Of a stretch of 7,936 bases of DNA, positions 1 through 7,936 are shown in pieces. Origin of the DNA: a virus (lineage: Duplodnaviria > Heunggongvirae > Uroviricota > Caudoviricetes). Position 1 is the stretch's first letter. Each line of letters opens with the position of its first letter. The notes beneath the pieces were generated by a model. That model did not search any database. It saw only the letters and a program-made list of their open reading frames with translations, and was not told where the DNA came from. The translations under genes and the position numbers were made by a program. The stretch lies in the IMG/VR virus record IMGVR_UViG_2654587792_000005, positions 1 to 7,936 of that record; one strand, written 5' to 3'.

Positions 1-411
1 GCTATCCTCCAGCAGGGAGTGATGGCTAACGGCGATTTCTTTGATGAACGCCACGGCCTGGACTGGTTACAGAATTATGTGCAGACCAACCTCTATAACC
101 TGCTTTATACCAGCACCACGAAAGTTCCCCAGACTGAAGCCGGTATTACCCGACTGTTATCAAATGTTGAAAAATCACTGGATCAGGCCGTTCAGAATGG
201 ACTGATTGCTCCGGGCGTATGGAACGGGGGCGACCTTGGTCAGTTGTCATCAGGTGACACACTGCCCAAAGGTTATTACGTATACGCCCAGCCGCTGGAT
301 GAACAGGCACAATCAGAACGTGAAGCCCGTAAGGCTCCGGTGATTCAGGCTGCAATAAAACTTGCAGGCGCGGTTCATTACGCTGACGTACAGATTAACG
401 TTGTTCGCTAA
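1..411 (+). CDS. Contractile tail sheath protein, C-terminal part (5-prime end lies upstream of the window)
   Basis: The frame is open from nt 1 ([15 protein letters not shown]...), so the GTG at 19 and ATG at 22 are probably internal codons. Stop TAA 409-411. It lies immediately upstream of the tube, chaperone-with-frameshift and tape measure genes, the canonical sheath position. The call rests on synteny, not on a recognised catalytic motif. Confidence 0.55.
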
Positions 412-421
412 GGGGAAGTGA

Positions 422-862
422 ATGTCTACCTATTCTTTTATGGATGTCACTGCGACGCTGACCGGCCCGACCGGTTCGATTGACCTCGGGTACGGTTCTG
501 CAAGTTCTGAAGAGGGGATTGTGGTTGCGATGGGCGGTCCTAAAAACACCATGACCATCGGTGCTGATGGTGAAGTGATGCACAGCCTCCATGCAGATAA
601 AAGCGGGACGATTACCGTTAACCTTCTGAAGACATCACCGACAAATAAAAAATTGTCGCTGGCGTATAACGCACAGAGCCAGTCTTCTGCCACATGGGGG
701 AATAACGTTATCGTGATCCGCAACAAGGTCAGCGGCGACATCATCACGGCACGCAGTGTTGCGTTCCAGAAACAACCGGATAATGCCAACGCTAAAACCG
801 GTAATACGATGCCGTGGGTGTTTGACTGCGGCAAGATTGACCAGGTTCTCGGGGAGTTTTAA
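422..862 (+). CDS. Tail tube protein (146 aa)
   Basis: ATG 422 follows a purine-rich RBS (AGGGGAAG, 411-418) and the sheath stop by 10 nt. Size and position directly upstream of the chaperone gene are typical of a myovirus tube protein. Stop TAA 860-862. Confidence 0.6.
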   Translation: MSTYSFMDVTATLTGPTGSIDLGYGSASSEEGIVVAMGGPKNTMTIGADGEVMHSLHADKSGTITVNLLKTSPTNKKLSLAYNAQSQSSATWGNNVIVIRNKVSGDIITARSVAFQKQPDNANAKTGNTMPWVFDCGKIDQVLGEF

Positions 863-865
863 TAC

Positions 866-1321
866 ATGGAATTCGAAATCAAAGGCGTGAAATATCGCGT
901 GGCAAAACTCAGCGTTTTTGACCAGCTGAAAGTGACCCGCAAACTTCTGCCGGTGGTACTGGCGGGAATGATGTCAGATTTCGGGAGCATTCGCTCCCGT
1001 TTGCCTGCTGACGGCAAAATCGACACCGTGAAATTCGAGCAGTTAAAACCGGTGTTTGAAACCATGCTCCCGCGTATCGCTGAGGAACTGTCTTCCCTGA
1101 CCGAAGATGACACCGATGCGATTATTCATCCCTGTCTTGCGGTGGTATCGCGGCGTCATATGGACGGATGGGTGCCGGTATTTACCCAGGGCGAACTGAT
1201 GTTTGATGATATTGACCTGCTGGTCATGCTGCAGCTGGTGGCGCGGGTGGTCGCCGATTCGCTGGGAAATTTTTTGCCTACACCCCTTACCAGCACGACG
1301 CAGAGCCTGCAACAGGGCTGA
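866..1321 (+). CDS. Tail assembly chaperone, short in-frame product (151 aa; gpG / P2 gpE analogue)
   Basis: ATG 866 has GGGGAG (851-856) 9 nt upstream. It is a small protein directly upstream of the tape measure gene and carries a slippery site near its 3-prime end. Stop TGA 1319-1321. Confidence 0.7.
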   Translation: MEFEIKGVKYRVAKLSVFDQLKVTRKLLPVVLAGMMSDFGSIRSRLPADGKIDTVKFEQLKPVFETMLPRIAEELSSLTEDDTDAIIHPCLAVVSRRHMDGWVPVFTQGELMFDDIDLLVMLQLVARVVADSLGNFLPTPLTSTTQSLQQG

Positions 1322-1518
1322 CGTTTAACAGCCTGCCGGACGGGCTGTCCTACCTTCTCAATCCGGTTGACGCCGGGTTAATTCCTTATACAGCACTTAA
1401 AGATGGCTCTGTCGATTTGTACGACATTGCTCTCTTGAATGACCATCTGGCGGTAAAAGCGGATAACCAGCGGCGCATTGAGAAATGGAGAGAGGATAAT
1501 GAACGCCGAGACTATTAA
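866..1518 (+). CDS. Tail assembly chaperone, -1 frameshift fusion product (about 217 aa; gpGT / P2 gpE+E-prime analogue)
   Basis: After the slippery run at 1264-1276 the -1 frame has no stop for 82 codons (FFAYTPYQHDAEPATGLTFNSLPDGLSYLLNPVDAGLIPYTALKDGSVDLYDIALLNDHLAVKADNQRRIEKWREDNERRDY), ending at TAA 1516-1518, 17 nt past the tape measure ATG. I translated this by hand; the extension has no start codon, so the ORF track cannot show it. Confidence 0.6.
1264..1276 (+). other. Programmed -1 ribosomal frameshift slippery site (GGGAAAT overlapping TTTTTTG)
   Basis: Sequence GGGAAATTTTTTG. In the chaperone frame the codons are GGA AAT TTT TTG, so both G_GGA_AAT (1264-1270) and T_TTT_TTG (1270-1276) fit the X_XXY_YYZ heptamer rule. 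Phage lambda G/GT uses the closely related G_GGA_AAG. Confidence 0.55.
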
Positions 1519-3487
1519 AGATTTCCTCGTCTCGCTTGGCTTCAGTGTGGATGATGCAGGAGCGAAAAAATTCGGTTCTGTCCTCGCCGGTACAACTGCA
1601 AATGTCATCAAAATGGGGCTGGCCGTCGAAGGAGCGGCGCTGTCCGTGGTGGCCTTCACGGCTAAGATCGCCTCCGGCCTGGATAATCTTTACTGGGCGT
1701 CACAGCGCACCGGCGCGACAGTCCAGGGAATTCAGTCTATTGGCTATGCGGTTTCGCAGGTTGGCGGCAGCGTGGACGCTGCGCGATCTTCTCTGGAAAA
1801 CCTCTCCCGGTTTATTCGTAATAATCCCGGGGCGGAGGGATTTCTGAATCGTCTGGGGGTACAGACACGGGATGCCAGCGGTAACATGCGTGACATGGCC
1901 GCTATTTTTACAGGGGTAGGCCAGAAGCTCAGCGACATGCCGTATTACCGTGCTAACCAGTATGCGCAGATGCTGGGCATTGACGAAAATACCCTGTTGG
2001 CTATGCGTCGCGGTGTGGGTGGCTTCTCCGGGCAGTACAGCGCAATGGCGAAAGCTATCGGCTTCAATGCTGACGAGGCGGCCAGAAGCTCCAACAAATT
2101 TATGACCTCCCTGCGTGAGTTTGGCGCGATGGCAGGCATGGCCCGTGACAAAATCGGCTCTAATCTTGCGGGTGGGCTTGCGGGTTCGCTGGACACACTG
2201 CGCCGCCATATCCTGGACAACTTCCCGCGTATCGAGCAGACCCTGACGAAAGCCATAAAAGGCATTCTGGCGCTCGGGGATATTATCGGGCGGCTGTTCT
2301 TCAGACTGATTGAGGGGACATCAGGCCTCATCACCTGGTGGCAATCGCTGGATAAGCAAACGCGGGAGTTGATCTCGCTGTTTGGCGCACTGACGATTGC
2401 GCTGCGCATTCTGAACAGTACGTTCTGGATGTCGCCGATTGGCCTCATTACCGCGCTGGCGGCGGGGATTGCCCTCCTGTGGGAGGACTATCAGACCTGG
2501 AAGGAAGGCGGCGACAGCCTGATTGACTGGGGCAAGTGGAAACCGGAGGTTGATGCCGCGCTGAAGATGGTTCGTGACCTTAAAACGACCGTTAACGACC
2601 TGGTGAAAGCGCTGGCGAAACTGCTCAATATTGACCCCAAATCATGGTCCCTGAAGTGGGATTTCAGCAACTTCATCGACCAGATGGGCGAATTCAGCAA
2701 AATGCTGAACATGATCGCCGACCTGCTCAACGCTATCAAAGATGGCCGCTGGGCTGATGCCGTCAGCATCGGCAAACAGATACTTAATCAGGGCAGCGAA
2801 AATCCGTCAGCGATGCCGATGGTTACAGACAGCGCTAACAGTACTGCCGACTGGATTAAAGAGCACTGGGGATTTGATCCCCGCAGTGTGGGCCGGACGG
2901 TACGCGGCTGGTTTGGTGATGATGAGCCGGAACAACATGCACAGGCTACGAAACGAGGAGAACGGAATAACAATCCGGGAAACCTTAATTTTGCTGGTCA
3001 GGCAGGGGCTTCTCTTGAACGCCCGGGCGGGCGATTTGCCAGATTTGAAACTGCCTTTGATGGATTACGGGCTCTTGCTCGTCAGTTAATGCTGTACGCC
3101 GGACGGGGAATAAACAGTGTGGAGAAAATTATCTCTACCTGGGCACCTGCGTCTGATAATAACAACACAACCGCGTATATCAGGGCTGTATCGCAACGAC
3201 TGGGAGTGGATCCCCGGGCTGCCCTGAATATGAGCGATCCGCAAACCATGTCAGCATTGATGAGCAGCATTATCCAGCATGAGAATGGAAGAAATATCTA
3301 TTCTCGGGAGCTGATTAATAAGGCTGCCGTGGCGGGAATTAGTGGCAAAGTGACAGAGGTTAACCAGCAAAATACCTACCACATTTACGGTGGCGGAGAT
3401 CCGCACGCTGTCGGTAATGAGGTTGCACGTCGGCAACAGTCTGCAAATGCTCAGGTCATGCGAAGTAATCAGGTGAGGGTGGGTTAG
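1499..3487 (+). CDS. Tail tape measure protein (663 aa from ATG 1499; the ORF track begins at in-frame TTG 1478)
   Basis: Longest gene in the window, immediately after the chaperone/frameshift gene. ATG 1499 is preceded by GGAGAGAGG (1487-1495). The N-terminal half is Ala/Gly-rich. There is a long hydrophobic segment (LISLFGALTIALRILNSTFWMSPIGLITALAAGIALLW) and a distinct C-terminal module (NNNPGNLNF...IIQHENG). Stop TAG 3485-3487. Confidence 0.8.
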   Translation: MNAETIKDFLVSLGFSVDDAGAKKFGSVLAGTTANVIKMGLAVEGAALSVVAFTAKIASGLDNLYWASQRTGATVQGIQSIGYAVSQVGGSVDAARSSLENLSRFIRNNPGAEGFLNRLGVQTRDASGNMRDMAAIFTGVGQKLSDMPYYRANQYAQMLGIDENTLLAMRRGVGGFSGQYSAMAKAIGFNADEAARSSNKFMTSLREFGAMAGMARDKIGSNLAGGLAGSLDTLRRHILDNFPRIEQTLTKAIKGILALGDIIGRLFFRLIEGTSGLITWWQSLDKQTRELISLFGALTIALRILNSTFWMSPIGLITALAAGIALLWEDYQTWKEGGDSLIDWGKWKPEVDAALKMVRDLKTTVNDLVKALAKLLNIDPKSWSLKWDFSNFIDQMGEFSKMLNMIADLLNAIKDGRWADAVSIGKQILNQGSENPSAMPMVTDSANSTADWIKEHWGFDPRSVGRTVRGWFGDDEPEQHAQATKRGERNNNPGNLNFAGQAGASLERPGGRFARFETAFDGLRALARQLMLYAGRGINSVEKIISTWAPASDNNNTTAYIRAVSQRLGVDPRAALNMSDPQTMSALMSSIIQHENGRNIYSRELINKAAVAGISGKVTEVNQQNTYHIYGGGDPHAVGNEVARRQQSANAQVMRSNQVRVG

Positions 3488-4074
3488 TGGATATTCTCTC
3501 TACACTTTTTCATCAGCAGAGCAGAAAAATAGGAATGATTGTTCCCAGTGTTGTTATTTCAGAGAAGCATACAGATATGCTTGAAATAACAGAGCATCCG
3601 GTAGAGGTTGGGGCCGCTGTCGCTGATCATGCCTATAAAAAACCGTCAGAAGTGGTGATGGAGGTTGGTTTCGCCGGTGGCGGCGCATTGCTGGATTTTG
3701 CCAGTAATCTGACGGCTACCAGCCTGCTCGGCCTGAGTCCTCAGCAGACGTATCAGGAGCTACTGGATCTGCAGGAAAGCCGTATCCCCTTCGATGTGGT
3801 AACCGGTAAACGACTGTACAGCAACATGTTGATCCGGGCGCTGGAAGTGACGACGGACAAGACAACCGAAAACGTCCTGTCCGCCGTCCTCACCCTGAGG
3901 GAGGTCCTTATCTCCCGGACACAGCAGATTACCGTCGCGGATAAAACCAACATGAAGGAAGGGGCCAGCACGTCGGCGGTACAGAATAGCGGCAACAAAA
4001 CCACAAAGCCTCCAGATACTTCACTGCTGAAAAGCATCACGGGTAACGTGGCGTCATTACTGGGGGGCGGCTAA
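3487..4074 (+). CDS. Tail or baseplate-proximal protein of unknown function (195 aa)
   Basis: GTG start overlaps the tape measure stop (TAGTG, 3485-3489), indicating translational coupling. GC is like the rest of the tail module. No motif I can name. Confidence 0.5.
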   Translation: MDILSTLFHQQSRKIGMIVPSVVISEKHTDMLEITEHPVEVGAAVADHAYKKPSEVVMEVGFAGGGALLDFASNLTATSLLGLSPQQTYQELLDLQESRIPFDVVTGKRLYSNMLIRALEVTTDKTTENVLSAVLTLREVLISRTQQITVADKTNMKEGASTSAVQNSGNKTTKPPDTSLLKSITGNVASLLGGG

Positions 4075-4376
4075 TGACAATTCAGGAAATTCCGCTGACA
4101 GCGGACAACCAGCAGTTCAGCATCGTCCTAGGTGGTGTCACCTGGCGGATTAGCATCATATGGCGCGATCTGTACTGGATTATGGACCTGCAGAACGACA
4201 GAGGGGAGCCGGTAATCTCCGGTATTCCTCTCGTCACTGGTGCCGACCTGCTGGCGCAGTACGCCTGTATGGGACTTGGTTTTAAGCTGTTGGTGGTCTG
4301 CGATGACAACACACAGGATTATCCCACGAAAACTGACCTGGGCGGGCGCAGTCATTTACTGGTATCAACGGAGTAA
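4074..4376 (+). CDS. Small tail/baseplate protein of unknown function (100 aa)
   Basis: ATG overlaps the preceding stop (TAATG, 4072-4076) with a G-rich stretch upstream. It sits between the tape measure-proximal gene and the hub-like gene. Function is not recognisable from sequence. Confidence 0.45.
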   Translation: MTIQEIPLTADNQQFSIVLGGVTWRISIIWRDLYWIMDLQNDRGEPVISGIPLVTGADLLAQYACMGLGFKLLVVCDDNTQDYPTKTDLGGRSHLLVSTE

Positions 4377-4378
4377 GC

Positions 4379-5443
4379 ATGACACAGAACTGGATGAGAC
4401 ATTTCGAGCTGCAGCTTGTGGACGGGAACGGTCAGGGAATTGAGCTAAGTGATTTTAAAGTCACCTTTACGATCGACTGGTTCAACATCAGCAGCGCGTC
4501 CCGGGTAGGGACTATCAAAATTTATAACCTCTCGGCAGATACTGTGAACCGAATTACCGGGCAGGAGTTTTCGAAAGTGCGTCTGATTGCGGGTTACGAC
4601 GGTATCGCGCCGGAGGTGTCGGCAAGCGATGTCGGGACCGTGCGGGAGGTTGATGCGGCGGACGTGGGCCAGAGTGATGGCCGCAACTACGGACTGATTT
4701 TCAGCGGTGAAATTCGCTACTCGGTCACAGGAAAAGACAGCCCGGTTGATTCCTACGTCCTGATTCAGGCAGCAGATACTGATCTGGCTTTTGCCACCAG
4801 TATAACCTCACAGACGCTGGCTGCCGGTTACACGGTCGCTGATGTAAACCGTGCGCTGATGAAAGACTTCGAAGCCAAAGGCGCGACCGAAGGCCTGACG
4901 CCTGAAATGCCTGCTACTGTATTCCCCCGGGGGCGGGTACTCTTTGGCATGACGCGGCATCTAATGGATAACGTAGCCGGACAATGTGGCGCAACATGGC
5001 AATTCGTGGACGGTCAGCGCCAGATGGTGGCGAATAACGAATATGTTCACGAAGCGATTGTGCTCAACAGCGCTACCGGGCTTATTGGAATGCCGCAGCA
5101 GACTATCGGTAACGGCGTAAACGTCCGCGCGCTTATTAATCCGAACATCCGGGTTAACGGGCTCATTCAGCTGGATCAGGCTTCCGTCTATCGTACCGCG
5201 TTGTCGAACAACGATATTGCGATGGCTGGTGGTCAGATCACCGACCAGAACACGGACGGAAATATTACGCTAAGCGGCACCACATCGCAGCCTGCCAGCA
5301 TCGCAACGGATGGCGTTTATATTGTTCGCGGGATTATGTACACTGGCGACACAAGGGGCCAGGCGTGGTACATGGATATGATGTGCGAAGCGCGTGGGGC
5401 TAGCGATATACCTAGCCAGTTGGCAATGCAACGGGGAGCGTAA
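4379..5443 (+). CDS. Baseplate hub-like protein (354 aa; assigned by size and synteny)
   Basis: ATG 4379 lies 2 nt after the previous stop, with ACGGAG upstream. A roughly 350-aa protein between the tape measure and spike genes is where gp27/gpD-type hub proteins sit in contractile tails. I did not recognise a specific motif. Stop TAA 5441-5443. Confidence 0.45.
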   Translation: MTQNWMRHFELQLVDGNGQGIELSDFKVTFTIDWFNISSASRVGTIKIYNLSADTVNRITGQEFSKVRLIAGYDGIAPEVSASDVGTVREVDAADVGQSDGRNYGLIFSGEIRYSVTGKDSPVDSYVLIQAADTDLAFATSITSQTLAAGYTVADVNRALMKDFEAKGATEGLTPEMPATVFPRGRVLFGMTRHLMDNVAGQCGATWQFVDGQRQMVANNEYVHEAIVLNSATGLIGMPQQTIGNGVNVRALINPNIRVNGLIQLDQASVYRTALSNNDIAMAGGQITDQNTDGNITLSGTTSQPASIATDGVYIVRGIMYTGDTRGQAWYMDMMCEARGASDIPSQLAMQRGA

Positions 5444-5445
5444 GC

Positions 5446-5907
5446 GTGAAAAAACAGGTGATAGTTGCAATAACGATGCTGATTTCTACGACTTCTTTTG
5501 CCGAACCAGGTAAGTTTGAATTTAAAGCAGCCGACCTGATGGAGCAGCAAAAGTTTACGGAATGGCAACATTACGCATCTGTGAAGCCTTTTTTCTCAAT
5601 GAATGGGCGACGTTTTACAATGACCTTAGATGATTTCGCTGACATCATCAGGAACACATTCCAGCAATGTAATGATTTGGACGCATACACCAACCGCAAA
5701 GGAACCCGGGATTCTTGTCAGGAATATATTTACAACGGTATGAAAGAGTGGATAAAACTGTCAAAGGATCCTAGTGTTAGTCCGCAAGCATGGAAAATTG
5801 GTGCTAGATATGCTTTCAACACAAATAATCCTGTCCCCGGTAGTAATGTGATTGATTTTAATGGTTGGGCTGGTGGTATTCGTGTTGCAAAATCAAAAGG
5901 GTTCTAA
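5446..5907 (+). CDS. Secreted or periplasmic protein of unknown function with N-terminal signal peptide (153 aa); accessory (moron) gene
   Basis: GTG 5446 has GGGGAG (5433-5438) 7 nt upstream and lies 2 nt after the hub stop. The N-terminus MKKQVIVAITMLISTTSFA-EP has two lysines, a hydrophobic core and a probable SFA cleavage site. The mature part has two Cys (QQCNDLD, DSCQEY). Hand-counted GC is about 38% at 5461-5520, versus about 58% at 2401-2460 in the tape measure gene. Confidence 0.6.
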   Translation: MKKQVIVAITMLISTTSFAEPGKFEFKAADLMEQQKFTEWQHYASVKPFFSMNGRRFTMTLDDFADIIRNTFQQCNDLDAYTNRKGTRDSCQEYIYNGMKEWIKLSKDPSVSPQAWKIGARYAFNTNNPVPGSNVIDFNGWAGGIRVAKSKGF

Positions 5908-6022
5908 TGGCACTAGAGTAGAAAATCCTCGATTTTTCAGGGAAATGGGCTCGTAGTAAAATCTAGAGATTCATTTTCTAAGGGGGATTTTGTGCGAAAC
6001 TACTAAGTAGACCAGATGTGGA

Positions 6023-6052
6023 TTGACTAAACTGTATACGCGAACATAAAAT
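6023..6052 (+). promoter_or_regulatory. Candidate sigma70-type promoter for the two-gene operon
   Basis: TTGACT (6023-6028), an 18-nt spacer, then TAAAAT (6047-6052), in the AT-rich 173-bp intergenic region about 30 nt upstream of GTG 6081. Sequence match only. Confidence 0.4.
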
Positions 6053-6080
6053 CTGACAAAAAATAAGTAGTGAGTGAACT

Positions 6081-6851
6081 GTGGCGAGACCAAAACTAAA
6101 AGCCGAAGAGCGTTTTGACCAGTTGATTAATGTAATCAACAGTGGGGAGCCACTTGATATGTGGACTTTCCGAGAAGTGGTTTCGGAGTATGGTTCTAAT
6201 CATACTCCTATGGCTGAAGCACTTGTAGCGTTGGCTTATATAGCTAAGGGTGAGGTGCTCTTTGGGATTGAGTCGCTTGAGGTCATCCTTCCACATGCTG
6301 ACGTTAATTTCGCACGGATCTTTTGTAAACTTCTCGAGCGATTTTCTCTACTCGAAAAACTGGATTACTACATATATTCTTTAGCTGATAAGTTTCCTAC
6401 AAAGTGGTTTACTTACAAAGCTGGCGGCGTTGCGTACTTGGTAGGGAAACTATCGAAATGCGTGGAGTATTTAGGGCGTCATTGCAAAATGTTATCCGAA
6501 GAAGAGCATAGGGATGACGCAGAAACCTTCTTGCAGGAGGTAATTAACGATATGGATGAAGCTTATAAAAATTCAGGGTGCTCTTCAGAGCAATATAGGC
6601 AAGTTGCCTTGGCTGTGCACAGAGTTATGGCTGAATTCCCGTCAACTGAATATCGCGCGGACATTAACGGGGCGTCTGGTGGAACGTATTTGGTTGAGGT
6701 GGTTAAGGCGTCTCCAGAGCGGGTTGTTGCAATGAATATGCGACTTGCTGATGAAATCTGCTCGATCGATTTGCTTGATGATTGTAACCTGATAGCAAGA
6801 TTTTCCGTTGAAAGAAATGGATTAAAAGAGTGTAAATATGCCTATAACTAG
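6081..6851 (+). CDS. Hypothetical protein, first gene of accessory two-gene operon (256 aa from GTG 6081, or 230 aa from ATG 6159); putative HEPN-like partner or effector
   Basis: Low-GC ORF (about 42% by hand count at 6081-6140). GTG 6081 has a weak RBS, whereas the in-frame ATG at 6159 has GGGGAG (6144-6149) 9 nt upstream, so the true start is uncertain. The C-terminal half contains YRQVALAVH (R173-x6-H180, nt 6597-6620), preceded by the acidic helix DAETFLQEVINDMDEAYKN. The stop TAG 6849-6851 overlaps the next gene by 14 nt. Confidence 0.55.
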   Translation: MARPKLKAEERFDQLINVINSGEPLDMWTFREVVSEYGSNHTPMAEALVALAYIAKGEVLFGIESLEVILPHADVNFARIFCKLLERFSLLEKLDYYIYSLADKFPTKWFTYKAGGVAYLVGKLSKCVEYLGRHCKMLSEEEHRDDAETFLQEVINDMDEAYKNSGCSSEQYRQVALAVHRVMAEFPSTEYRADINGASGGTYLVEVVKASPERVVAMNMRLADEICSIDLLDDCNLIARFSVERNGLKECKYAYN

Positions 6852-7233
6852 TTCTGAGTTTTTGTCTTCGGCCGAACGTTGTTTTGCTGAAGATTGTGAG
6901 ATTGGTTATCGTAATGCTATTTCACGAGCATATTACGCTCTCTACCATGAAATTAAAGATAATCTAACTAGTCTTCCTGCTTATACTCGGGATCATCATG
7001 CCAGCCTTATCTCTTATCTTAAAAATAAGGGAGAAAATAAACTGGAACCCTATGATCCTCGAAGTCTAAAATCTATGGCTTACAAACTTGAGCAACAGAG
7101 GTTAGCTCGGAATGAGGCTGATTATGATTTAAGTAGTTGTGGCATAAATAAAGCAATGGCACAACAATCAATCTTGGAAGTAAAAACAATTTTTTCTCAA
7201 TGGGAACAAATGAAGACTGATGTAGCCGTTTAG
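6838..7233 (+). CDS. Small HEPN-like protein, second gene of accessory two-gene operon (131 aa)
   Basis: ATG 6838 with AAGAG 8 nt upstream, overlapping the upstream gene. The helix SAERCFAEDCEIGYRNAISRAYYALYHEIKD carries R30-x6-H37 (nt 6925-6948). A second His pair follows (DHHASLISYL), then a C-terminal helix QQRLARNEADYD. From memory this resembles canonical HEPN-domain proteins; the domain call is unverified. Stop TAG 7231-7233. Confidence 0.5.
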   Translation: MPITSSEFLSSAERCFAEDCEIGYRNAISRAYYALYHEIKDNLTSLPAYTRDHHASLISYLKNKGENKLEPYDPRSLKSMAYKLEQQRLARNEADYDLSSCGINKAMAQQSILEVKTIFSQWEQMKTDVAV

Positions 7234-7252
7234 GTCTAACTGATTTATTAAT

Positions 7253-7280
7253 AAAAACCCGCCACTTGGCGGGTTTTTTG
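7253..7280 (+). terminator. Rho-independent terminator (A-tract, GC stem-loop, T-tract; potentially bidirectional)
   Basis: AAAAA-CCCGCC-ACTT-GGCGGG-TTTTTTG: a perfect 6-bp all-GC stem (7258-7263 with 7268-7273), a 4-nt loop, then six T. It lies 20 nt after the HEPN-like gene stop; the flanking A-tract would allow function on the opposite strand too. Confidence 0.8.
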
Positions 7281-7298
7281 CTTTCTGGAGCCTACTAA

Positions 7299-7936
7299 AT
7301 GGCAGTATCTGACCAGACCCGCAGCGGCGACCTTGCCGAAACATTCAAATCTGAACGGGAAACAACAAAGAACCAGATCCGTGTCGCCTTGCCTGGCATT
7401 ATTCAGTCATTCGATCCTGATGCGGTGACGGCAGTTGTGCAGCCTGCTATCCGTTCGGTTGAAAAGGATAATGACGGCAACCGCATTACCCAAAATTACC
7501 CATTGCTGGTGGATGTGCCAGTGGTATTCCCGCGTGGCGGAGGCTGTACGCTAACGTTTCCAGTTAAAGCCGGTGATGAATGTTTGGTGATTTTTGCCGA
7601 TCGTTGTATTGATTTCTGGTGGCAGAGTGGCGGGATACAGGAGCCGGTCGATGACAGAATGCATGATTTATCGGATGCGTTTTGTATTGTCGGTCCCCAG
7701 TCGCAGGCAAGGAAGATTAGCGGTATTAATACCAGTGCCACACAGTTGCGTAGTGATGACGGCAGCACCTATTTTGAGCTTAATCCTGATACCAGGAAAA
7801 TTAAAATTGTCGCTCCGGGGGGCCTTGATGTGGTTGCCCCTCTGGCTGATTTTTCTGAGAAAGTAACCATTCATGGCCTGTTAACCTGGATGGGAGGCAT
7901 GGTGGGGTCTGTTGTTTCTGGTGTGGCTTCAAAAAT
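7299..7936 (+). CDS. Baseplate central spike-like protein (gpV / gp138-like), N-terminal part; 3-prime end beyond window
   Basis: ATG 7299 has GGAG (7287-7290) 8 nt upstream. The frame has no stop over 212 codons to the window end (hand translation: MAVSDQTRSGDLAETFKSERETTKNQIRVALPGIIQSFDPDAVTAVVQPAI...LVDVPVVFPRGGGCTLTFPVKAGDECLVIFADRCIDFWWQSGG...). The ORF track omits it because it has no stop. GC returns to the tail-module level. The spike call rests on position after the hub gene and on a remembered N-terminal pattern, so it is tentative. Confidence 0.5.
   Translation, partial: MAVSDQTRSGDLAETFKSERETTKNQIRVALPGIIQSFDPDAVTAVVQPAIRSVEKDNDGNRITQNYPLLVDVPVVFPRGGGCTLTFPVKAGDECLVIFADRCIDFWWQSGGIQEPVDDRMHDLSDAFCIVGPQSQARKISGINTSATQLRSDDGSTYFELNPDTRKIKIVAPGGLDVVAPLADFSEKVTIHGLLTWMGGMVGSVVSGVASK

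Follow-up and report, generated by a model that had tools for sequence, protein, structure and literature searches.

Why are the genes for the baseplate hub and the membrane-puncturing spike of a phage tail held apart, in some prophages, by small genes of a different base composition, and what are these genes? The question is raised by a stretch of 7,936 nucleotides (nt), hereafter the window, which forms positions 1 to 7,936 of the IMG/VR virus record IMGVR_UViG_2654587792_000005 (Caudoviricetes). This window comprises the tail module of a temperate myophage, a relative of Salmonella phage SEN34 (genus Brunovirus). Its best match, at 99% identity across the full length, is a prophage of Escherichia coli APEC-O117H42, and other related phages include the Escherichia phages vB_EcoM-689R2/606R2 and Yersinia phage YP3. 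Between the hub stop at 5443 and the spike ATG at 7299, an initial annotation had placed a low-GC (guanine plus cytosine) accessory island of three genes, at 5446-7280. These three open reading frames (ORFs), here called orfA (5446-5907), orfB (6081-6851) and orfC (6838-7233), are confirmed, and RefSeq annotates the same three in the APEC-O117H42 prophage.

The comparison of this locus with its relatives leaves little doubt that an accessory hotspot with two slots occupies this interval in the late (tail) operon of Brunovirus-like temperate phages infecting Enterobacterales. With less assurance, we think it probable that the whole is explained by a hotspot whose contents are exchanged through recombination and whose second slot takes modules of toxin-antitoxin (TA) or defence type.

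A variable site between hub and spike

In the virulent Salmonella phage yarpen and the cyanophage Pam3, which share the gene order tape measure, Dit, plug, hub and spike, the hub stop overlaps the spike start and nothing lies between them. Given this overlap, the island is an insertion between two genes that are otherwise coupled, and this bears out the earlier proposal of a compositionally distinct accessory insertion parting the two genes. A temperate Burkholderia phage carries a single gene between hub and spike, on the opposite strand.

The GC content is 0.407 over 5446-7280, 0.533 over 1-5443 and 0.499 after 7299; in bins of 100 nt, the mean is 0.407 inside the interval (n=18) and 0.530 outside (n=60; Mann-Whitney p=1.5e-9). 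A maximum-likelihood segmentation of the whole window with two breakpoints places the low-GC segment at 5440-7260, with a log-likelihood gain of 43.6. At third codon positions (GC3), the values are 0.39 for orfA, 0.42 for orfB and 0.24 for orfC, as against 0.58-0.64 for the tail genes. The fall of GC at the hub stop, its recovery at the spike start and the inner value of 38-42% given by the initial annotation are all upheld by these measurements, the difference from the flanks being highly significant in GC and GC3. Only its figure of about 58% for the tape measure gene was too high, the mean of this gene being 0.542 with local peaks of 0.59-0.595. In every host and context examined, whatever the GC of the host, the cargo lies 4-12 points under the neighbouring phage genes. 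Low GC is therefore a trait of such cargo, which neither marks a particular donor nor dates the acquisition.

A census of 5426 complete E. coli genomes found the tail module in 388 of them (about 7%), including the reference pathogens enteropathogenic E. coli (EPEC) E2348/69, enterotoxigenic E. coli (ETEC) H10407 and O55:H7. At least 80% of the window is matched in only 12 of these 388 genomes. The orfB-orfC pair occurs in 10 E. coli genomes, at 100% identity in 3 and at 84% in 7, E2348/69 among the latter, while orfA occurs in 3 and a 72%-identical paralogue in 9 more. All three island genes are found together in only 3 of the 388, far from a uniform retention of the same genes among relatives. 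Some genomes match the window at 98-99% identity in the flanks and have unrelated DNA in the interval. All 25 hub-spike intervals inspected in E. coli, Salmonella, Yersinia and Klebsiella follow a common plan, with the hub followed by a small gene (slot 1), a variable cargo (slot 2), a terminator and the spike; slot 1 is filled by three gene families and slot 2 by at least 12 types of cargo. The suggestion that the hub-spike junction is a variable cargo site thus holds in four genera, and the alternative, that the intervals track phage phylogeny and swap no cargo, is contradicted by the data.

The contents of slot 2 are diverse. Three diverged versions of a pair encoding a TPR-like and a HEPN protein are found (256+131, 243+142 or 243+140, and 272+127 amino acids, aa), the first being orfB-orfC. 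Other cargos are a 192-aa protein with a YafO toxin, a transmembrane (TM) protein with a partner of 57-59 aa, a DUF4282 protein, a DUF2335 protein, a 140-aa TM protein, a 148-aa protein, a 119-aa protein and, in phage 689R2, a 170-aa protein. Weak PycTM-like matches were obtained among the slot-2 TM proteins. The 170-aa protein was considered as a further HEPN protein on the basis of an 'RNNLFH' motif, a candidacy which hhalign did not support against the orfC family. In Klebsiella pneumoniae, slot 2 holds a trio of 186+81+122 aa, the third of which matches PD-T4-9_C (E 8.8e-7) and the first PD-T4-9_A (E 0.013). PD-T4-9 (CmdTAC) has been validated by experiment as an abortive-infection system (Vassallo et al. 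2022, PMC9519451), which shows that systems of a proven defence type can occupy the slot; CmdTAC itself is absent from the window and unrelated to orfB and orfC. Slot 2 is empty in locus L003. In the sampled listing of a search with concatenated cargos, only the slot-1 gene was recognisable in many further genomes. About 125 module-bearing genomes have no recognisable cargo at the stringency of this search, and the real diversity therefore exceeds our catalogue.

Comparing the variants also defines the borders. On the left, homology stops at about 5400, 43 nt before the hub stop; the last ~43 nt of the hub gene (5401-5443, ~14 codons) travel with the cargo, and hub C-termini vary with the type of slot 1. 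On the right, homology with all relatives resumes at about 7253. Variants alike in one part of the interval and unlike in the other served to tell the two units in between apart. A search for direct or inverted repeats flanking the interval returned only short chance matches, and no transposase or integrase was present among the ORFs and family matches of 5446-7280, both in agreement with what had been noted at first sight. An Rfam scan of 5300-7400 gave only sub-threshold, terminator-driven matches. Exchange of the contents would proceed without a dedicated recombinase, through homologous recombination at three conserved anchors: the hub gene in its 3' region (junction near 5400), the ancestral slot-1 gene at its 3' end, and the terminator together with the 5' end of the spike gene.

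The site recalls the defence hotspots described in P2-like phages and in P4-like satellites (Rousset et al. 2022, PMC9122126), which likewise offer a fixed site to many low-frequency cassettes, hold HEPN-containing and TA-like contents, use no dedicated recombinase and reside in E. coli prophages. It differs from them by its SEN34/Brunovirus-like lineage and its position inside a tail operon, by its two slots, the first always taken by an exported-protein gene, by its right border, a conserved terminator, and by a cargo which, in this window, is known from sequence alone. Phage defence and accessory hotspots (PMC9122126) and morons are already known, and we found no account of this hub-spike site or of the orfB-orfC pair in the searchable literature. 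Given its frequency of ~7% in E. coli, reference pathogens included, the hub-spike interval is a store of exchangeable accessory genes that is both widespread and easy to find. Most of its cargos lack a known function, and at least one is similar to an anti-phage system that has been validated. The interval is a defined place to mine for TA and defence modules and for exported exclusion factors.

Two slots and a shared terminator

In the window, slot 1 is occupied by orfA, on the plus strand, the start of which lies 2 nt after the hub stop with no promoter-like site upstream. Its product of 153 aa is a predicted exported protein with two invariant Cys; the N-terminus reads MKKQVIVAITMLISTTSFA followed by EPGKF, a signal peptide according to sequence-based prediction. 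As a single sequence or as a family profile, orfA has no match in Pfam, PHROG (function), NCBIfam, PADLOC or PDB. Its homologues fall into eight clusters of 56-80% identity, and those that were looked up (in Klebsiella pneumoniae prophages and in the E. coli loci L005 and L007) directly follow the hub gene. The same arrangement is general. In every locus examined, the slot-1 gene starts 0-3 nt after the hub stop, and in every variant examined its product is predicted to have a signal-peptide or lipoprotein-like N-terminus.

Three families share this position. The first, of 111-122 aa (the 113-aa family, phrog_3443), is found in most relatives including SEN34; the second is the orfA family, of 153-158 aa, present also in Klebsiella pneumoniae prophages; the third is a lipoprotein of 241 aa. 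No relationship was detectable between the orfA and 113-aa families, of which only the signal peptides align, and the 113-aa family has no match either, single or profile, in Pfam, PHROG (function), NCBIfam, PADLOC or PDB. A likeness of the 113-aa family to MliC, suggested by Cys residues near both ends and by an MliC lipoprotein preceding the pair elsewhere, has no sequence support and is not claimed. The spacer after orfA (5908-5973, plus strand) contains at ~5917-5960 a decayed remnant of the 3' end of a 113-aa gene, recognised by weak alignment to L005 and L007. In these two loci, the stop of the orfA paralogue is followed immediately by the near-intact last ~55 nt of the 113-aa gene. The remnants left after orfA-type genes indicate that an orfA-type gene replaced most of the ancestral slot-1 gene.

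The slot-1 protein would be translated as part of the hub and late tail transcript. More speculatively, it might act at the envelope, as a superinfection-exclusion factor or as a factor directed at a receptor or peptidoglycan. Exclusion lipoproteins are encoded in the tail regions of other phages, as exemplified by Llp of T5 and Cor of phi80, N15 and HK022. Like them, slot-1 products are small exported proteins or lipoproteins encoded among tail genes; the analogy is a functional one, no sequence or fold relationship between Llp or Cor and orfA or the 113-aa family having been established.

Slot 2 (5974-7252, plus strand) comprises a promoter-like site and the orfB-orfC operon. E2348/69 has a different slot-1 gene and the same pair at ~84-85% DNA identity, with homology running from 5974 through to the spike. 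The promoter-like site, TTGACT-18-TAAAAT (6023-6052, plus strand), is the best match to the sigma-70 consensus in the window (10/12) and ends 28 nt upstream of the GTG of orfB. It lies inside a block of 33 nt that is identical in E2348/69, where the surroundings are ~85% identical, and a -10-like TATAGAAT stands at the equivalent position in the Yersinia and L017/L018 homologues. Of the internal promoter claimed for the island, what stands is this candidate before orfB, with none for orfA.

The terminator, AAAAACCCGCC-ACTT-GGCGGGTTTTT (7253-7278), is an intrinsic hairpin with a GC-rich stem of 11-12 bp and a T-run; an A-run and the T-run flank the stem, making it potentially bidirectional. An alignment covering E. 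coli, Salmonella SEN34, Yersinia and Klebsiella loci finds hairpin and T-run at the same distance from the spike ATG in 16/16 loci of these four genera. The AACCCGCC-loop-GGCGGGTTTTTT hairpin, the spacer, the GGAG and the spike ATG are identical next to unrelated cargos, and only the loop varies. Being kept beside unrelated cargos, the terminator is a backbone element at the right edge of the hotspot and not a part of the cassette. It was thus correctly recognised in the initial annotation and wrongly attributed to the cargo, and the lesson is that a terminator adjoining phage cargo may belong to the backbone. Yersinia phage YP3 (L010:6976-7100) is the only relative without the conserved terminator upstream of the spike. 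The 4-nt loop occurs as ACTT, ATTC, GGAT, AAGT, ACCA, ACCC, TAAC and TTCG on a nearly invariant stem, and may be a place where recombination junctions or independent mutations gather.

Lambdoid morons, in the concept of Hendrix and Juhala, are promoter-gene-terminator units in late operons. The island shares with them its insertion between genes adjacent elsewhere, its odd composition, a promoter-like site and a terminator, and in both cases expression from the prophage while the late genes are silent is presumed. The moron architecture first proposed for the whole island fits slot 2 only, and in part, since orfA lacks a promoter and the terminator belongs to the common backbone. In a lysogen, slot 2 would be transcribed from its own promoter, and the terminator would keep this transcription out of the spike and downstream tail genes. 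Late transcription would pass the terminator by antitermination. The layout of the prophage is lambdoid: the Q position, immediately before the holin gene, is taken by a DUF1133 gene.

The orfB-orfC pair and its possible roles

The product of orfB (256 aa, plus strand) is modelled as paired antiparallel helices forming a TPR-like repeat superhelix over residues ~1-185, followed at ~190-245 by a small C-terminal alpha/beta domain of ~55 residues with a predicted beta-beta-alpha-alpha-beta structure. A fold search of BFVD returned two full-length uncharacterised viral matches and otherwise generic TPR matches. A minimal nucleotidyltransferase domain was found neither by Pfam, NCBIfam and PDB sequence searches nor in the model. 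An assignment of the pair to HEPN-MNT (HepT/MntA, type VII) was consequently rejected, and the AMPylation mechanism of that type cannot be assumed.

The product of orfC (131 aa, plus strand) is predicted to adopt a HEPN helical bundle and to be an RNase toxin of the AF0298 type. The start of orfC overlaps the end of orfB by 14 nt, and an overlap or abutment of the two genes is kept in all variants of the pair. As a single sequence, orfC scores 18.5 bits against Pfam HEPN, under the gathering score of 22 bits; its family profile matches the PDB entries 9xbd (E 1.3e-6), 9xbc (E 8.9e-6) and 2hsb (E 1.1e-4). The last of these is AF0298 (UPF0332) of the HEPN-T family, and orfC is assigned to the AF0298-like branch. 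The canonical Rx4-6H motif is not present in orfC, where R91-N-E-A-D95-Y96 has the Arg and lacks the His. Among close homologues, R91 and D52-H53-H54 are invariant, the latter lying between the helices 21-41 and 53-66, and one His at the 53/54 position is kept in all diverged variants. For AF0298-like HEPN proteins, an alternative His from an insert between helices 2 and 3 has been proposed to complete the active site (PMC3710099), and the predicted arrangement of R91 with H53/H54 matches this description. The entries 9xbd and 9xbc, both recent and named 'HEPN domain-containing protein' (125-131 aa), are, among solved structures, nearest to orfC in sequence. At the position of orfC Y96, the one has Y and the other F (RNRSDYDL and RNRSDFDL), suggesting that their depositors regard this tyrosine as functionally important.

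On the matter of age, the low GC of the island is no evidence of a recent acquisition. The Klebsiella aerogenes homologues have identities of 85% for the hub, 76% for orfB and 82% for orfC, and those of Yersinia 60%, 58% and 77%, respectively. A divergence of the pair close to that of the hub indicates a long residence in some lineages.

The same or similar pairs are found in other backbones, among them a siphovirus-type tail module and another myovirus contig. They also occur in Klebsiella phage ST405-OXA48phi1.3, upstream of the tape measure gene, in Pseudomonas phage PG1, between tape measure and hub-like genes, and, flanked by portal/late-control genes and replication gene A, in a P2-like Vibrio phage. 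A Mu-like tail module is included in these backbones. All the HEPN partners have NAISRAYYxxYH, a His in the helix 2-3 loop and RxxxDYxL, and all the large partners end in a segment of the 'MNxxLxDE...ARF' type. The large partner of PG1 has no profile similarity to orfB and that of the Vibrio phage a weak one (E 3e-4, probability 40%), so for these two phages relatedness is judged from length, gene order and a C-terminal motif assessed by eye.

Several observations accompany this distribution. On L019:2409-4090 (ERZ27245333 k141_173954), which has a siphovirus-type tail module (terminator_5, tube_2, YdaY), a 114-aa lipoprotein with a Pfam MliC domain (lysozyme inhibitor) precedes the orfB-orfC homologues, an order that echoes the succession of exported protein and pair between hub and spike. 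Truncation affects both the MliC gene and orfB in L020. Phage YP3 encodes an orfB-like TPR protein of 266 aa with no annotated HEPN partner, and the E. coli locus L027 a near-identical TPR protein together with a partner of 127 aa.

Whether orfB-orfC is a TA or defence module is, in our judgement, evenly balanced. The orfC product would be an RNase toxin with an alternative Arg/His active site, which the orfB product is predicted to neutralise, perhaps also sensing a trigger. Expressed from the prophage, the translationally coupled pair would act as a TA-like abortive-infection or defence module. HEPN genes adjoining genes for helical-repeat proteins are described in conflict and defence contexts (PMC3710099), the same pairing as in orfB-orfC; those examples are likened to ours by description, involve other HEPN subfamilies and lack the conserved C-terminal domain that orfB adds. 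We found the combination of a TPR-like protein with an AF0298-type HEPN protein described nowhere in the searchable literature, PADLOC, Pfam or NCBIfam, and the pair is a concrete and experimentally accessible candidate.

Several points weigh against this account of the island. Promoter-like matches occur in the window at chance level (9 found, 9.3 expected), so the count itself lends nothing to the internal promoter. With orfC deviating from the canonical motif, its RNase activity depends on published structural inference. The pair matches no PADLOC system, its sole match there being HEPN_IX at E 0.003, nor does it match any NCBIfam model. The slot-1 gene is near-universal and could serve the phage rather than its host, and orfA and the 113-aa family both stand outside all the databases searched. 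Finally, the co-divergence of pair and hub across genera is also compatible with a function in the life cycle of the phage itself.

A more ambitious version of the defence reading, which we advance tentatively, is that the pair and its diverged variants form an unnamed abortive-infection system and that the whole interval is a two-layer 'immunity locus'. The orfB protein would hold the orfC HEPN RNase inactive until a protein of a competing phage is sensed; slot 1 would provide exclusion at the envelope and slot 2 abortive defence inside the cell. Such a system would span phages of E. coli, Klebsiella, Yersinia, Vibrio and Pseudomonas.

Alternatively, the pair could be a plain addiction module that stabilises the prophage or its segment by post-segregational killing and plays no anti-phage role. 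The toxin-like HEPN fold predicted for orfC, the overlapping two-gene operon and the TA-type nature of other cargos at the site (YafO, the CmdTAC-like trio) are all in keeping with this, as is the retention of the pair in a degraded prophage of Klebsiella aerogenes that has lost most head and tail genes. Yet many such TA modules have proved to be abortive-infection systems, as did CmdTAC (PMC9519451), and the two roles are not exclusive. As a TPR-like partner of 256 aa is also unusually large for a simple antitoxin, we consider addiction as the sole role rather unlikely. In the degraded prophage, seen in L014/L015 (4689-9870), almost nothing separates the portal gene from the hub gene, and the slot-1 gene, the orfB-orfC pair and the spike gene are retained.

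It is more doubtful still that the island genes serve the lytic cycle and not the lysogen, with orfA and the 113-aa family aiding lysis or tail penetration or shielding progeny from receptor-bearing debris, and orfB acting as a TPR chaperone of tail assembly. The slot-1 gene is indeed coupled to the hub in every temperate relative examined, the pair co-diverges with structural genes, and the pair-like cassettes of other phages also sit within tail modules. Against these points, however, slot 1 takes genes from three or more families with no relation to one another, slot 2 accepts a dozen unrelated cargos and is empty in L003, and the virulent and cyanophage relatives share the baseplate genes but leave the position vacant. 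Predicted signal peptides argue against virion proteins, slot 2 has its own promoter-like site, and the similar pair of the P2-like Vibrio phage lies outside the tail genes.

Counter-defence, in which orfB-orfC would inhibit or evade host immunity during infection, is what accessory, fast-exchanging, low-GC phage genes of unknown function can turn out to provide, and TPR proteins can serve as binders or decoys. It is nevertheless highly improbable here, as HEPN domains of the nuclease type are characteristic of toxins and of effectors of defence (PMC3710099), the alternative cargos of the site are of TA or toxin-antitoxin-chaperone (TAC) type, and a late operon with a separate promoter fits expression from the prophage better than early anti-defence expression.

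The tail module and the rest of the prophage

Upstream of the island, the window encodes the C-terminus of the sheath protein (19-411, DUF3383), the tube protein (422-862, KPP10_Orf10), a tail assembly chaperone (866-1321), the tape measure protein (1478-3487), a Dit-like protein (3487-4074) and the plug (4074-4376, Pam3_gp18). The baseplate hub gene on the left flank (4379-5443, plus strand) matches Pfam E217_GP41 weakly, below the gathering score (E 6e-5). On the right flank, the 5' part of the spike gene (7299-7936, plus strand), annotated by RefSeq as 'membrane-puncturing spike protein', is preceded by the ribosome-binding site GGAG (7287-7290) and runs off the window.

The tape measure protein is the 'lytic transglycosylase' of RefSeq, and its relatives have a Pfam SLT domain, so that the tail brings its own peptidoglycan-cleaving activity, possibly relevant to the periplasmic slot-1 proteins. 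Its start is a TTG at 1478 in the ORF list and lies at ~1499 in RefSeq. Between chaperone and tape measure, at ~1345-1509, RefSeq places a 54-aa DUF6889 ORF that overlaps the tape measure start and the equivalent of which in phage Mulock is annotated as a programmed-frameshift product of the chaperone gene. The window measures 7936 nt and its counterpart in APEC-O117H42 (NZ_CP172331.1) 7933 nt, implying a small insertion or deletion somewhere upstream of 6838.

Beyond the tail module, the APEC-O117H42 prophage (locus L038, NZ_CP172331.1 2116000-2133200) has a Rac/lambdoid early region with recET, kilR, ralR, ydaT and hokD. A further accessory-looking pair, encoding an sce7726 family protein and a convergent 'beta family protein', lies between its replication genes and late region. 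Downstream of the baseplate genes, L001:22277-25121 is an invertible tail-fibre segment adjoining the pinE recombinase gene, with two opposed sets of tail-fibre assembly and tail-fibre C-terminal genes, and the end of the L001 prophage adjoins pphA/yebW/yebV.

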